A stretch of 64,000 nucleotides of DNA from Acidimicrobiia bacterium (lineage in GTDB: Bacteria; Actinomycetota; Acidimicrobiia; IMCC26256; JAENVU01), in NCBI GenBank assembly GCA_031422675.1, contig JANPMG010000002.1, positions 4,379 through 68,378 of the forward strand, given 5' to 3'. Every line of letters begins with the position of its first letter. Within the stretch, counting starts at the first letter, position 1. The position numbers were made by a program, and so were the translations under genes. The notes beneath the pieces are model-generated. The model saw only the letters and a program-made list of their open reading frames with translations, was not told the origin of the DNA and searched no databases. Below are positions 5,298-30,653 of the stretch, one piece after another.

Positions 5298-5311
5298 GCG
5301 ACCTCGCCGCC

Positions 5312-5361
5312 GACTTTCGTGCACTTTGGGGATTCCTGGCCCCCCAAAGTGCACGAAAGTC
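5312..5361. repeat. REP-like perfect palindrome (20-bp arms, 10-nt loop), copy A
   Basis: gactttcgtgcactttgggg (5312-5331), attcctggcc, then ccccaaagtgcacgaaagtc (5342-5361), followed by gagg. A related copy lies at 30546-30653. Confidence 0.85.
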
Positions 5362-5382
5362 GAGGTGGGTGTCGACGTGAGT

Positions 5383-20451: not shown

Positions 20452-20652
20452 TCAGATGACGCGGACGTTCTGCGCTTCCTCACCCTTGCGACCGGGAGCA
20501 GTGTCGAACTCGACGCGCTGGCCATCTTCGAGGGTCTTGTACCCATCGGCCTGGATCGCCGAGAAGTGAACGAACACATCCTCACCCGAGTCACGCGAGA
20601 TGAAGCCAAAACCCTTTTCGGCGTTGAAGAACTTTACGGTGCCTTGCTGCAC
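20452..20652 (-). CDS. cspA: Cold-shock protein (CspA family)
   Basis: GTG start. The sequence is [66 protein letters not shown], with RNP1/RNP2 motifs. Confidence 0.95.
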
Positions 20653-20774
20653 AGATTTCTCGTTTCTTTGTTCGCGATCGACCAAGGGATTTTGATCGAC
20701 TCGCGACGAACACCCTAGGGCGTGAACGAGCCCCGGCCGGCATGGGAGGCGAAAAAGGTTGGCACCGAGTGCGA

Positions 20775-21566
20775 TCAGGCGTTGATCTCGCCGCCGCGCC
20801 CGTGTTTCCAGTAACCGCGGATCGTGCAGTTCGAACGAGGAATCCCGACCTCGTCGAAACAGAACCGACGGATCCGCTGCATCGCCGAGGCTTCGCCGGC
20901 CGCCCAGACCCGACTCTGGACGGCGGGTGGGGCGGACCGCAGCGCGCGCACGAGCATCTCGCCGGGGGACGCGTCGGCGGGGAGATCGAGCCAGGTGGCG
21001 ACGGCGGTCGAGCGCGTCGTGATCGTCATCCGCGCGTCGGGGTGCGCAATCTCGATGAAAATCGATGCGTGAGCGTGCGCCGGCAGTGCGGGTATGACTT
21101 GCATGATCGCGGGGATGGCGGACTCGTCCCCGGCGATCACGAAACTCGTTGCCGTGTGGTCCGCCGTGTAACCGCGTCCCGGTCCCGAGATCGCGCCCGG
21201 CGCGCCCGGCCGCACGGTGGCCGCCCACTCCGACGCGATGCCGTGGCCGTGGATCACGACGTCGAGATCCAGTTCGAGCCGCTCGGGATCGAACGCACGG
21301 GGGGTGAAGGTCCGGATGACGGGCTTGGTGTCGTCGGGGAGGAGGAACTCGTTTCCGCGCCAGGTGGGAATGACGAGCTCGGACGTGCCGGGTGCCGGTA
21401 GCAACAGCCGCACACTGGCAGCCGGCTCATCGGCCGTGAATCCCGCGAGCGCGGCGCCGCGGAGCGTCACGCGCCGGAGACGGGGCGTGACCGGCTCGAC
21501 CCGTTCCACCTCGACCGCTCGGAACTTCGGTGGTGCGCGGCGGACGCGCAGAACGGCGGGAGTCAC
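20775..21566 (-). CDS. Siderophore-interacting protein family FAD-binding reductase
   Basis: GTG 21566 overlaps the upstream TGA as [25 protein letters not shown]...RTFTPR...GPGRGY...[12 protein letters not shown]...VWAAGEAS...RGYWKHG is typical of the SIP family. Confidence 0.85.
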
Positions 21567-22141
21567 GCGTTCGGGTTTGCCTCGGCGAGCGCCTCGAACT
21601 GGGCTCGGACCGTGGCGGCGTCGGGTCGGTAGAACAGCCGGGTGGTGCCGTCGGGTCTGATGAACACCCATGCGGGTTGGCCGCGCACGCCGAACTTCTT
21701 CCAGACCGTGAGATCGAAGTCCGCGCCGTTGGGGAAGTCCAGCGCGTACTTCTTCACGTAGTCGAGCATCGGTCCCTGATCATCACGACCGGCGATGCCG
21801 ACGACTGCGAGCCGATCTCGGTACTGGCGCGCCAACTGCGCGACACCGGGTGCCTCCCGGTTACAGACCGTTCACCAAGGTGCCCAGAACCACAGGGCCA
21901 GGGACTTGCCGGCGTAATCGGCGCCGCGGACCGACGGCCCGGTGACGCCGGGGAGGGTGAAGTCGAGCGCCGCCGGGACCGCCGGTGCCTCGGGAGCCGA
22001 GGTGGGTGCCGAGGTGGGGCCGGAAGCGGGTGCGGAGGACGAGGTCGACGTCCGGGCCGGCTCGCTCTGATCGGTGCCGGCGCTCGACCCGCATGCGGCC
22101 ACCACGAGCGAGGCGGCGACGAGGGTCACGAGACTGCGCAT
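21563..22141 (-). CDS. TlpA/DsbE(Mpt53)-like thioredoxin-fold lipoprotein with an in-frame TGA at the first redox Cys (candidate selenoprotein, or nonsense-mutated pseudogene)
   Basis: ORFs 21872..22468 and 21563..21835 are in the same frame and are separated only by TGA 21874-21872. The joined sequence is MRSLVTLVAASLVVAACGSS (lipobox)...GKSLALWFWAPW[TGA]TVCNREAPGVAQLARQYRDRLAVVGIAGRDD...GVRGQPAWVFIRPDG. This parallels the VLWFWTPWCPFCNAEAP region of Mpt53/DsbE-type proteins. Confidence 0.6.
21845..21861 (-). other. Candidate bacterial SECIS-like hairpin downstream of the in-frame UGA
   Basis: On the minus strand: UGA, acggucugua (10 nt), then ACCGGG-aggca-CCCGGU, a 6-bp stem with a G-containing 5-nt loop starting 16 nt after the UGA. 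Confidence 0.3.
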
Positions 22142-22353
22142 GACGCGAAGTGTAGAGACGATCACCGCGAGCGGGCGCGGTATCGCGCGTACGACGACGC
22201 GGCTGAGGCCAGGTTGTTGTTCATCACCGGCATCGTGCTGATGCTCCTCTGTGTACTTGCGTGTACGGCACCGGTCATCGGAGGACTGTTGGCCGGGTCC
22301 TTCCTGGATCAAGTGGTGTGACCTCTTCGTGTTCGCGGATCCGTCTCGACGGC

Positions 22354-22390
22354 TGGGATGGACGTCACGCCGAGCGTGACGCGAATCCCA
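22354..22390 (+). repeat. 37-nt hairpin-forming direct repeat, copy 1
   Basis: tgggatggacgtcacgccgagcgtgacgcgaatccca, with nested inverted repeats tgggat/atccca and gtcacg/cgtgac. Confidence 0.85.
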
Positions 22391-22514
22391 CACGCGGTTC
22401 GGAAGGGGGGACATTGCCGCGCGCCTGGGGGTAGCTGAAGCCAGTCCTCTGCGCAAAAGGCTCGCCACGGCTGCAGCCTCGTCCGTGCTGGCGTGTCGAT
22501 GCTCGTATTCCGAG

Positions 22515-22553
22515 ATTCCTGTTGGCTAGGACACGTGTATAGCTAACAGGAAT
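22515..22553. promoter_or_regulatory. AT-richer, roughly 39-bp near-perfect palindrome (possible operator or RNA hairpin)
   Basis: attcctgttggctagg-acacgtgt-atagctaacaggaat. The arms match except for one mismatch and one indel, and the core ACACGTGT is itself palindromic. Confidence 0.4.
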
Positions 22554-22572
22554 TCCCGAAAACGGGTGCGCC

Positions 22573-22602
22573 GTTGTGACGCGACCGCGGACGCGTCACA
22601 AC
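22573..22602. promoter_or_regulatory. Perfect 11-bp inverted repeat (hairpin or operator)
   Basis: gttgtgacgcg-accgcgga-cgcgtcacaac. It shares the GTGAC/GTCAC half-site with the 37-nt repeats. Confidence 0.4.
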
Positions 22603-22705
22603 GATCCGCACTCGCCGGCTCGACGTCCGGGGAAGCAGTCCGGGCCCACCGATTCTCGGGTGTGGGTACCGCGGCCCGGGTGTTCGGTGGACCGGTCTCG
22701 GCGAT

Positions 22706-22742
22706 TGGGATGGACGTCACGCCGAGCGTGACACGGATCCCA
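22706..22742 (+). repeat. 37-nt hairpin-forming direct repeat, copy 2
   Basis: tgggatggacgtcacgccgagcgtgacacggatccca. It matches copy 1 at 35 of 37 positions and starts 352 bp downstream of it. Confidence 0.85.
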
Positions 22743-22886
22743 CTCACTCCGTGATGCATCGCAGTGCGCCCGCGAAGCGCGCTCCGAGGTCCACGCGGCG
22801 ATCTGAACACGCTCGAGAACCTCAAGCGCGTGCTCGAAGCCACACCACGGCAGGGCTGACGACCGGCTTCGAGGCGCCGAGGTCCG

Positions 22887-23279
22887 TCAACGCTCGACAC
22901 CAGTTGCGGTCCGCAGCATCGTCACGATCCTGGCGAGATCGAGACGCGTCGCCGCCACGCGCATGACGAGTTCGTAGACGTCGTCGTTCCGGATCGCGGT
23001 GGCTCGAACGCCGTTGAGTTCGAGGAACACTGCGGTGGCCAACCATCCCAGTCGCTTGTTGCCGTCGACGAGGGCGTGATTGTTGACGATCGAGTCGAGC
23101 AGCGCGGCGGCCTTCGTCCAGAGGTCGGGATAGGCGTCGGTGCCGAACGCGGTGGCCTGCGGTCGGGCGGTCGCCGAGCCGAGCAGACCGAGGTCGCGAA
23201 TCGGAGGTGGATCGCCGAGCAGGAGCCCGGCCAACTCGACGACGTCGTCGAGTTCGAGGTACTCGATCGGGCGGGTCAC
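22887..23279 (-). CDS. doc: Doc (death-on-curing) / Fic-family toxin
   Basis: Fic/Doc motif HALVDGNKRLGW, in a 130-aa protein immediately after a small RHH-like gene with a 4-nt overlap. Confidence 0.88.
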   Translation of the reverse strand: MTRPIEYLELDDVVELAGLLLGDPPPIRDLGLLGSATARPQATAFGTDAYPDLWTKAAALLDSIVNNHALVDGNKRLGWLATAVFLELNGVRATAIRNDDVYELVMRVAATRLDLARIVTMLRTATGVER

Positions 23280-23479
23280 TGCCCCAGTCGGTCGAGCGCA
23301 TCGGCGTGCGCACGCGTGACGCGACGGGCGGCGGCGGACACGCGGTCGCGGTGCCGGCCAGCGGCGACGTACGCGCGCACCGCTTGGCGAGCCGCGTCCT
23401 GGAGCGAGATGCCTTCGGCGTCGGCGCGCTCGCGCAGGGCGGATTGCTCGTCGTCGGTCAAGCGCAACGTCATCGCCAT
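23276..23479 (-). CDS. Ribbon-helix-helix (CopG/Phd-like) antitoxin
   Basis: 67 aa, MAMTLRLTDDEQSALRERADAEGISLQDAARQAVRAYV. It has the beta-strand plus two helices of an RHH fold and overlaps doc. Confidence 0.75.
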   Translation of the reverse strand: MAMTLRLTDDEQSALRERADAEGISLQDAARQAVRAYVAAGRHRDRVSAAARRVTRAHADALDRLGQ

Positions 23480-23488
23480 CCGGCTATC

Positions 23489-23515
23489 GTATCAGTCTGG
23501 TATCAGTCTGATACC
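23489..23515. promoter_or_regulatory. Probable toxin-antitoxin operator: direct repeat plus palindrome just upstream of the antitoxin start
   Basis: The direct repeat gtatcagtct occurs twice (23489-23498 and 23500-23509). The palindrome ggtatcag-t-ctgatacc (23499-23515) is perfect, with 8-bp arms. The site lies 10-36 bp upstream of ATG 23479 and overlaps the stop codon of the PuuD-like gene. Confidence 0.5.
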
Positions 23516-24315
23516 AACTGCTCGAACAGCGCGAGGTGATCGGGGCGGTGGCGGAGGAACTCGGGATGCCACTGGATTCCGAGGACGTTGGCGGCGCCGT
23601 CGATCTCGATCGCCTCTACGTGCCCGTGCTCGTTCGTGGCGACCGCGCGCACCCCGGCGCCGAGCGCGTCGATGACCTGGTGGTGGAGCGTGTTCACGCC
23701 GAGCGTCCCGGTGCCGACGATCCGAGCGAGGCGCGAGGCCGGGTCGATCGTGACGGTGTGCGCGTCGAGGTTGTACTGGTCCAGGCGCATGTGATCCTCC
23801 ACGTGCTGGTGCAGCGTGCCGCCGAGCGCGACGTTCATGACCTGGATGCCGCGACATACCGCCAGCGTCGGCGTGTTGCGGCGGACGACGGCGCGCGCGA
23901 CCGCAATGTCGGCCGCATCCCGTACCGGATCGATCGGTCCGAGCTGGGGATGCGGATCCTGGCCGTATCCCGCCGGGTCGAGATCACGGCCGCCGGTGAT
24001 CACCACCGCGTCGACCGCGTCCAGGAGCGCGTCGACTTCGTTCGGATCAACGACGGGCACGATCATCGGCACTCCGCCCGCGCGCTGTACCGCCTTGACG
24101 TACGCCGTCGCCGCCATGAAGTGATCCACGGCGACTCCCTCGTCACCGTCCACCGCGTCGAGGTGCGCGACGATCCCCACGACCCTCAGTCCTCTTGGCC
24201 CTGCGGGCGTCACGATGGCGTCGCTCGCTGGCCGGGCAAACTTCGAACCGCTCCCTGCTCCGCTCGCTTCGCTGCCGGACGGGCCACGCTCCGCTGGCTC
24301 ATCGGCTGTGGTCAC
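23503..24315 (-). CDS. Gamma-glutamyl-gamma-aminobutyrate hydrolase family (PuuD-like, peptidase C26, class I amidotransferase)
   Basis: VVITGGRDLDP..YG, LAVCRGIQVMNVALGGTL (nucleophile Cys) and GIQWHPE. The start is uncertain: GTG 24315 gives a low-complexity N-terminal extension. Confidence 0.85.
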   Translation of the reverse strand: MTTADEPAERGPSGSEASGAGSGSKFARPASDAIVTPAGPRGLRVVGIVAHLDAVDGDEGVAVDHFMAATAYVKAVQRAGGVPMIVPVVDPNEVDALLDAVDAVVITGGRDLDPAGYGQDPHPQLGPIDPVRDAADIAVARAVVRRNTPTLAVCRGIQVMNVALGGTLHQHVEDHMRLDQYNLDAHTVTIDPASRLARIVGTGTLGVNTLHHQVIDALGAGVRAVATNEHGHVEAIEIDGAANVLGIQWHPEFLRHRPDHLALFEQLVSD

Positions 24316-30525: not shown

Positions 30526-30545
30526 GCTGGCTCCGCCTCCTTCCC

Positions 30546-30653
30546 GATCTTCGTGCACTTTGGGGACCCTCGCCTCCGAAAAGTGCACGAAAGTCGAGGA
30601 TCCGGGCGAGGATCAGAGCGCAGCGCACGAAAGTCGAGGATCCGGGCGAGGAC
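30546..30653. repeat. REP-like element, copy B: imperfect palindrome plus a 40-bp tandem duplication
   Basis: The arms are gatcttcgtgcactttgggg (30546-30565) and ccgaaaagtgcacgaaagtc (30576-30595), with 16 of 20 positions pairing. g[t/c]gcacgaaagtcgaggatccgggcgagga then occurs twice (30583-30612 and 30623-30652). It shares gtgcacgaaagtcgagg with copy A. Confidence 0.85.

Follow-up and report, generated by a model that had tools for sequence, protein, structure and literature searches.

What fills the 745-bp gap between the gene of a Doc toxin and the gene of a thioredoxin-like lipoprotein (redoxin) in a 64-kb stretch of an uncultured Acidimicrobiia genome (contig JANPMG010000002.1)? The whole stretch is called the window below, all coordinates are counted from its first letter, and the interval in question covers positions 22142-22886. 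It is probable that this interval is a non-functional mosaic of decayed genes and palindromic repeats, the latter resembling repetitive extragenic palindromes (REPs) and bacterial interspersed mosaic elements (BIMEs) or small miniature inverted-repeat transposable elements (MITEs), situated at a junction prone to rearrangement. The initial annotation had described the interval as gene-free and AT-richer than its surroundings. No intact gene is present indeed, and the Pfam search with each open reading frame (ORF) of at least 30 amino acids within the interval gave no matches, but two gene fragments occupy positions 22157-22318; the difference in composition has the direction claimed (65.2% GC versus 67.8% in the window), but its size is marginal. 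The interval had also been named as the longest non-coding stretch of the window; a crude filter based on the GC content of third codon positions, which also missed real genes, leaves other gaps of 600-800 bp there.

The interval contains two copies of one hairpin element:

22328-22415, minus strand: hairpin copy A, core 22354-22390, matching the nhmmer family profile with 68.8 bits (E-value 7e-20)
22676-22760, minus strand: hairpin copy B, core 22706-22742, matching the same profile with 66.7 bits

The cores were correctly annotated as direct repeats identical at 35 of 37 positions, with 352 bp between their starts. The similarity of the two co-oriented copies stretches to 55 nt (22337-22391 and 22689-22743, 87% identity), and the 27-nt identical core of the repeats occurs at two sites in the 64 kb, versus none expected from shuffled sequences. 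The repeat folds into an outer GGGAT/ATCCC stem, an internal loop of about 3x3 nt and an inner stem of 8 bp.

These two copies are members of a dispersed repeat family. A scan for the strict 22-base pattern GGGAT-N4-GTCACG-N5-CGTGAC-N4-ATCCC in a collection with one genome per GTDB species, including incomplete metagenome-assembled genomes (MAGs), found the hairpin on ten contigs, all of them from three Acidimicrobiia MAGs (six in GCA_025361725.1, three in JANLTQ and one in CAVWPR). With this pattern and these incomplete genomes, at least six copies were seen in one MAG, three to four in another and two in the 64-kb window. One further match was located on a single 1-kb contig in the JGI metagenomes, and there were no matches in the IMG/VR, plasmid and phage collections. 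The profile search revealed variant copies at the doc locus of three relatives (L022, L023 and L029; the labels L001-L029 denote the compared loci in relatives or in other MAGs and metagenomes) and no additional degenerate copies in the window. All 16 aligned copies have 13 predicted pairs with the internal loop of about 3x3 nt. The alignment also shows conserved flanks beyond the hairpin, giving an element of about 85-100 nt with a defined orientation and the consensus ...TTCCGAAyCGCGTnT-GGGATCnnnGTCACGCTCGGCGTGACGtccATCCC-AAtCGCCGAGACCGATCC... The flanks are asymmetric, comprising about 20-25 nt on one side (...TTCCGAAyCGCGTnT) and about 30 nt on the opposite side (AAtCGCCGAGACCGATCCACCGCACACCCAAG). 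Copy A possesses the consensus extension on the non-AATCGCC side, the other extension being diverged, and aligns to the copies of L013, L015 and L019 over 60-75 nt with 82-85% identity. In copy B just one flanking extension is consensus-like; this copy is 96% identical over 55 nt to the copy of L004 (8451-8505), where the flanking genes are about 81% identical.

Every copy of the hairpin is intergenic and lies outside plausible ORFs, and most copies are single. According to Pfam, the neighbouring genes encode CN_hydrolase, ADH_zinc_N, Dabb, OB_ChsH2_C (ChsH2-type OB-fold), LigD Prim-Pol, pyridoxal phosphate-dependent decarboxylase and SNase proteins; an Lhr-like helicase, a penicillin-binding protein, an MMPL protein and a VapB-like antitoxin were recognised by reading the sequence. 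In L011, two inverted copies, 36 nt apart, are placed between the stop codons of convergent genes, and the copies of L016 and L021 lie directly downstream of stop codons. Toxin-antitoxin genes adjoin hairpin copies at two loci, that of the window and L004, and L013. In the latter (L013 1-210), about 85 nt separate the hairpin from the start codon side of a gene for a VapB-like ribbon-helix-helix (RHH) antitoxin (MRTTIDLPDDLHRVAKAL...), which has its own AT-rich, operator-like sequence with repeated ATGCA; its 46-aa fragment has no match in Pfam.

This distribution bears on the idea, preferred in the initial annotation, that the hairpins and palindromes are operators of one dimeric transcription factor; such a factor would control the redoxin operon and other genes. 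The dyad GTCACG-N5-CGTGAC is perfect and invariant, it is nested in GGGAT/ATCCC, its sequence is conserved rather than covarying, and several copies (L004, L014, L017, L019) precede a start codon by 30-200 nt. The GTGAC/GTCAC half-site is enriched as well, with seven occurrences in the interval against 2.6 expected, four of the seven lying in the two hairpin copies. However, the half-sites of the palindrome designated P2 below are not conserved in its L017 homologue, and the neighbours of the copies have no common function and do not resemble a regulon; the orientation of the copies and their distance to start codons vary. The L011 pair lies between convergent gene ends, a place with no promoter, and this cannot be reconciled with an operator role; the copies just past the stop codons in L016 and L021 do not suit it either. 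The orthologous copy of L022 and L025 stands 5-17 nt past the doc stop codon and faces another 3′ end, and the redoxin gene keeps its own promoter-like box both with and without a nearby hairpin (L009, L025). An operator function is thus very unlikely.

The part of the interval nearest to the redoxin gene contains the remains of two genes:

22157-22228, plus strand: relic of a merR-family regulator gene, with about 21-24 codons left (...YRAYDDAAEARLLFIT) and the helix-turn-helix (HTH) and C-terminal parts deleted
22223-22321, plus strand: relic of a membrane protein gene (82/84 aa, Cys-rich), forming an in-frame fusion with the merR relic, stop codon at 22319-22321

The plus-strand frame 22142-22321 translates as ...RERARYRAYDDAAEARLLFIT followed by GIVLMLLCVLACTAPVIGGLLAGSFLDQVV and a stop, the first part corresponding to MerR and the second to the membrane protein. 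In the BLASTP comparison the merR relic matched residues 34-54 of the L009 MerR-family protein (16 of 21 identical, E-value 4e-8); tblastn with the MerR proteins of L025 and L022 gave 75-100% identity over 16-24 aa, and blastn gave 88-92% to merR of L009, L022 and L025, where the intact gene matches Pfam MerR. The 59-aa reading frame containing the merR relic has no Pfam matches and no intact HTH_MerR domain; with only about 21-24 homologous codons, it represents a relic rather than a gene. The second relic corresponds to residues 21-52 of the 84-aa protein of L009 (25 of 32 identical, E-value 2e-16), and is similar to the 82-aa protein of L027 (tblastn, 75% over 32 aa, E-value 5e-15) and, at the nucleotide level, to L009, L025, L026 and L027 (80-82%). 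Searches with the proteins of L022, L025 and L027 using tblastn support both matches. The presence of gene relics at 22157-22318 is almost certain. The homology to the small membrane protein stops exactly where hairpin element A starts (about 22319-22328).

The source of these relics can be seen in the relatives. The ancestral operon is intact in L025, L026 and L027, with the order doc, then, in the opposite orientation, the genes of a 198-aa membrane protein, of the 82-aa protein and merR, the last being divergent from the redoxin gene. Of this operon, the window lacks the 198-aa gene altogether and keeps only minor parts of the 82-aa gene and merR; a tblastn search for remains of the 198-aa protein in the 297-bp insert between the hairpins found nothing credible. 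The intact operons (L009 864-2174, L025 5510-6814, L027 749-1879) comprise merR, the gene of an 82/84-aa membrane protein with a CxxxC and a C-terminal CGDGC motif, and that of a 182-198-aa membrane protein, and are divergent from a candidate selenocysteine-containing redoxin. Upstream of merR, L009 has a MerR-type promoter, TTGACC and TACCCT separated by a 19-nt spacer with the dyad ACCC-N7-GGGT. As judged from sequence, this layout points to a transport module of the heavy-metal or mercury type to which the redoxin would be linked.

A synteny series was built from loci with identical CspA and from Doc homologues; no contig on record contains the exact sequences of the Doc, P0001 and PuuD proteins of the window. 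In L025, L026 and L027, doc is followed by a degenerate hairpin and the intact operon. In L022, L023 and L029, a hairpin 5-15 nt past the doc stop codon is followed by an unrelated 151-aa ORFan and a truncated merR; the ORFan of L022, which adjoins the hairpin, has only two homologues, one from the corresponding locus of a second MAG, the other with no DNA available. The window has doc, 143 nt, hairpin B, P2, P1 (two palindromes described below), hairpin A and the relics. In L004, the merR operon is wholly deleted and doc is followed by one hairpin and then directly by the redoxin gene. In L024, unrelated DNA of 374 nt separates doc from a redoxin relic, which is followed by the gene of a siderophore-interacting protein (SIP). 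In L001, L003, L006, L007 and L010, cspA comes straight after the GATase gene. The 297-bp segment between the 55-nt repeats is missing in L004 with its single hairpin. An origin of the L004 state by recombination between copies A and B was considered and rejected; the flank pattern reflects which copies keep the consensus extensions.

The copies at the same place in L004, L022, L023 and L029, together with the degenerate ones in L025-L027, indicate by comparison of the sequences that hairpin B, placed where the antitoxin-doc operon ends (3′), is ancestral there. Meanwhile, the DNA on the AATCGCC side of this hairpin has been replaced in almost every lineage. A second locus behaves similarly: the hairpin accompanies ADH_zinc and OB-fold genes in both L014 and L017, and the synteny breaks at the hairpin; between these shared parts, L014 has a Dabb gene and L017 has the P2-P1 module and about 1.3 kb with two ORFs of unknown function.

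Such one-sided variability raises the question of whether the hairpin is a site of site-specific recombination, the direct copies being attL/attR-like and bracketing a decayed or miniature insert (P2-P1), with cassette-like exchange on one side. The 55-nt direct repeats do flank a segment of 297 bp absent from the single-copy L004. The AATCGCC side of the doc locus differs in each lineage, carrying the intact operon, the 151-aa ORFan, P2-P1 with a second hairpin, or nothing, and the ADH_zinc/OB-fold locus varies on the same side; toxin-antitoxin genes stand beside copies at two loci. The hairpin also shares with integron attC sites and Vibrio cholerae repeats (VCRs) the structure of an imperfect palindrome of about 60-130 nt, the direct orientation and the bounding of short segments, as well as the variable DNA beside it and the toxin-antitoxin module that immediately precedes one copy. 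Unlike attC sites, it has no RYYYAAC/GTTRRRY core sites on inspection of the sequence, and the copies are dispersed singly over many contigs rather than in arrays. No intI-like gene, integrase or recombinase was seen near the site in the window or in any of the loci examined. In addition, L017 has P2-P1 without a second hairpin, and copy B lacks one consensus extension that copy A and L004 have, which misfits the simple product of an attB x attP reaction. This explanation is unlikely. Its more specific form, according to which the hairpin would be the recognition site of an undescribed Acidimicrobiia recombination system swapping or capturing DNA on the AATCGCC side, with the 352-bp unit as a captured ORF-less segment, has a still lower probability. 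If true, it would imply an integron-like or REP-targeted cassette mechanism and would explain the hypervariable DNA past doc and at the ADH_zinc/OB-fold locus. To our knowledge, integrons are essentially unknown in the phylum of Acidimicrobiia.

The same pair of hairpins could be regarded as the subterminal ends of a non-autonomous element of the IS200/IS605 type, a palindrome-associated transposable element (PATE), mobilised in trans by a Y1 (HUH) transposase. Y1 transposases, such as those of IS608 and the REP-associated tyrosine transposases (RAYTs), recognise imperfect palindromes with an internal loop, and the hairpin with its conserved internal loop is a substrate of this type. Two similar imperfect hairpins on one strand, about 350 bp apart in direct orientation and with no target duplication, also correspond to such an element. 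However, the unit hairpin-P2-P1-hairpin has no second copy at any locus examined, the hairpin occurring elsewhere alone or as an inverted pair. Besides, four other lineages have a solitary hairpin that is the orthologue of copy B, and thus this end pre-dates the 352-bp unit. A tblastn search of about 300 kb of locus DNA with RAYT and IS200 TnpA (Y1) sequences found no match. An element of this type is highly improbable.

A small-element scar or element ends, one of the options listed in the initial annotation, is closest to the data in a broader sense, that of a dispersed hairpin, a P2-P1 module recurring near hairpins and a deletion scar of the merR operon. The 352-bp unit as such, however, has direct and not inverted ends, with no target duplication, and no transposase was found in the locus DNA searched (about 300 kb). 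Small non-autonomous mobile repeats and MITE-like elements (ERIC/RU-1, Correia, RUP) have been reviewed (PMC3184786, PMC2229807). Like them, the element studied here falls in the size range of about 90-130 nt, forms a hairpin and is intergenic and dispersed; it differs in presence between related genomes and its copies abut truncated genes. Unlike them, it has asymmetric flanks, lacks clear terminal inverted repeats other than the central hairpin, and has no shared duplicated target around the copies.

Between the two hairpins lie two further palindromes, and a third family, P3, was found elsewhere in the window and in related loci:

22491-22579, core 22504-22564, minus strand: P1, an AT-richer imperfect palindrome of about 60 nt, RNA fold z = -4.9
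22565-22614, core 22572-22603, minus strand: P2, a palindrome with 11-bp perfect arms GTTGTGACGCG/CGCGTCACAAC, fold z = -3.5
5307-5366 and 30544-30602 of the window, L004 796-860, L012 3747-3823 and L016 4757-4825: P3 sites

P1 has the centre ACACGTGT and a consensus half-site GTTRGCTATAC, with TTCCGGAA-like arms alongside. It had been annotated as a near-perfect palindrome of about 39 bp; the palindrome exists, but it is imperfect, the arms 22504-22528 and 22540-22564 being 80% complementary. For P2, the perfect 11-bp inverted repeat was confirmed, and the arms reach 16 nt with 94% complementarity. Homologues of P1 were found in L017 (1607-1691) and L019 (2946-3025). The P2 homologue of L017 (1565-1614) is directly beside P1 in the same order, and its stem is partly kept. 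The whole P2-P1 module (22482-22604) is 74.6% identical to L017 1573-1700 over 130 nt (E-value 1e-16), and the P2-P1 match of L017 and the P1 match of L019 are within about 220-270 nt of a hairpin copy. P3 (GACTTTCGTGCACTTTGGGG...CCCCAAAGTGCACGAAAGTC), with the form GACTTTCGTGCACTTTGGGG-loop-CCCCAAAGTGCACGAAAGTCGAGG, adjoins hairpins in L012 and L016. These genomes carry several extragenic palindrome families with a tendency to cluster, which conforms to the BIME picture described for REPs (PMC2817692). The 3′ arm of P3 with its flank (CACGAAAGTCGAGGATCCGGGCGAGGA) is tandemly duplicated at 30586-30650. An IdeR/DtxR iron box and a dif site were considered for P1 and dropped, as there was no evident match to their consensus sequences. 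The P1 pattern has no matches in IMG/VR.

The stability of these hairpins, especially P1 and P2, and the 75% conservation of P2-P1 between non-orthologous loci would also fit one or more structured non-coding RNAs encoded in the interval, another option of the initial annotation. However, no Rfam family matched at the gathering threshold in the whole 64-kb window, and at E-values up to 10 the region 21700-23400 gave only chance-level matches (E-values of about 1-8). The scan for promoter and terminator consensus sequences, including those of sigma-70, found nothing, and the same sequences are palindromic as DNA on both strands. Neither the hairpin nor P1 shows covariation. In the hairpin, the 13 pairs hardly vary at all; as the search pattern itself dictates 11 of these, their invariance is partly an effect of ascertainment. 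In L025, the only drifted copy found independently of the pattern, pairs are broken without compensation; in P1, one of the 22 pairs is compensatory and many are broken in homologues. The RNA explanation is not supported by these comparisons and is the least probable of those considered.

In its general features, the hairpin family is most readily compared to the REPs and BIMEs of Proteobacteria, as defined by Nunvar et al. 2010 (PMC2817692). Like REPs, the hairpin is a short G+C-rich imperfect palindrome (35-37 nt) forming a stable stem-loop, here with an internal loop; it is strictly extragenic, lineage-specific and conserved among copies, and occurs past stop codons and between convergent genes. 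Together with P1, P2 and P3 it forms mosaics, and one inverted doublet (L011) was found. The differences concern the unit, which is about 90 nt long with conserved flanks rather than 20-40 nt, and the spacing, which shows no regular alternation of orientation. No RAYT gene was seen in the locus DNA, and the host belongs to an uncultured lineage of Acidimicrobiia. No description of this repeat family was found in literature searches, which yielded general papers on REPs and MITEs only, nor of REPs in this lineage, and no Rfam entry matches the family. It is familiar in kind.

The history of the interval as a mosaic of decayed genes and repeats may be outlined as follows. The ancestral locus, with doc facing the operon of the 198-aa, 82/84-aa and merR genes and the redoxin gene divergent from it, was cut down to a deletion scar, in which about 22 merR codons run on in frame into about 32 codons from the gene of the small membrane protein. 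The hairpins are two co-oriented copies of a dispersed element that behaves like a REP or small-MITE family of uncultured Acidimicrobiia, the copies being always extragenic, conserved in sequence, scattered beside unrelated genes and sometimes arranged in inverted pairs. Copy B, at the end (3′) of the operon of antitoxin and doc, is the old one; if it has a function, this is probably that of a 3′ stem-loop, that is, a terminator or a stabiliser lacking a U-tract. Copy A is a second copy abutting the truncated membrane-protein gene. P2 and P1, repeated near hairpins elsewhere, join the hairpins into a BIME-like cluster of different palindromic units. We infer that the repeats spread by enzyme-mediated transposition or recombination and promote local rearrangements. 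The redoxin operon would be driven by a conserved TACACT box of its own (22149-22154) and would need nothing further upstream.

Several observations weigh against this history of decay and repeat accumulation. The copy number as measured with the strict 22-base pattern on incomplete MAGs is low, at least six per MAG, whereas classical REPs typically exceed 100 copies in a genome (PMC2817692). In the tblastn search of about 300 kb of locus DNA mentioned above, no RAYT or IS200 TnpA was found. Most copies are singletons, and the pair in the window, 352 bp apart, is direct, not inverted as in BIMEs and REP doublets forming hairpins (REPINs). The strong conservation of the hairpin, the stems of which are partly fixed by the search pattern, is equally compatible with a protein-binding site. 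The variable DNA on the same side of the hairpin at two independent loci hints at something more directed than passive repeats.

The remaining part of the interval and its surroundings contain the following features:

22744-22886, minus strand: 3′ flank of doc, in which 22834-22886 is conserved with L004 and 22744-22833 is a 90-nt stretch specific to the window according to blastn
22149-22154, minus strand: TACACT box resembling a -10 element, 7 nt upstream of the redoxin ATG (22139-22141)

The blastn alignment to L004 ends at window position 22834 and picks up again at the hairpin. The 90-nt stretch between the doc flank and hairpin B, missing in L004, reads ...GDLNTLENLKRVLEATPRQG and a stop on the plus strand; the translation resembles a fragment of a real protein, and no homologue was identified. 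The blastn search with the whole 745-bp interval against the plasmid and phage collections yielded no matches.

On the minus strand, the interval is preceded by the genes of a GlnA-like protein, a Peptidase_C26/GATase protein (23503-24315), an RHH antitoxin (23276-23479) and Doc/Fic (22887-23279), and is followed by those of the redoxin (21563-22141), SIP and CspA. A perfect 22-bp palindrome, AACTCGACGACGTCGTCGAGTT, is present at 23233-23254 within doc, in the 5′ part of its coding sequence (LELDDVVEL). The segment from the GATase gene to cspA (window 20452-24315) is hypervariable among relatives: it contains nothing (L001, L003, L006, L007, L010), SIP only (L005), the toxin-antitoxin genes with redoxin and SIP (window, L004) or other upstream genes (L008, L009).

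The TACACT box is located 7-8 nt upstream of the redoxin ATG in the window, L004, L009, L024 and L025 (TAAACT in L025) and is the likely promoter, predicted from its position and sequence, of a leaderless redoxin-SIP transcript. Its retention in five lineages regardless of the hairpin suggests that this promoter is self-contained. The redoxin gene contains an in-frame TGA (21872-21874) at the position of the first Cys of the CxxC motif (WAPW-TGA-x-V-C-N; WAPW-TGA-TVC in the window). This codon is kept in six lineages (window, L004, L009, L022, L025, L029) with DNA identity of about 77-80%, and a conserved hairpin, AACCGGGAgGCnCCCGG, about 11 nt downstream of it looks like a selenocysteine insertion sequence (SECIS). 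The conserved TGA and the SECIS-like hairpin favour a genuine selenocysteine codon over a pseudogene, the gene being a candidate in this respect. A tRNA-Sec beside the candidate selenoprotein was also considered; the scan for tRNA and tmRNA genes in the whole window found none. In L024 (1392-1521), the redoxin gene is reduced to a short relic (ATGCGCCGACTCGTGGTTCTCATCGCCGGCGCAACGAAGTGA) right before SIP, so the candidate selenoprotein is dispensable in some lineages.

For the biology of this lineage, these results remove a candidate regulatory or non-coding RNA locus from the list. They also explain the length of the gap by deletion of the merR-type operon together with an accumulation of small palindromic repeats. 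The lineage-specific families of extragenic palindromes (the hairpin, P1 and P3) could help in the assembly and binning of MAGs, in the annotation of intergenic regions and in strain typing. The hypervariable junction between puuD/doc and the conserved block of candidate selenocysteine-redoxin, SIP and cspA genes may serve as a case for the study of rearrangements promoted by repeats.

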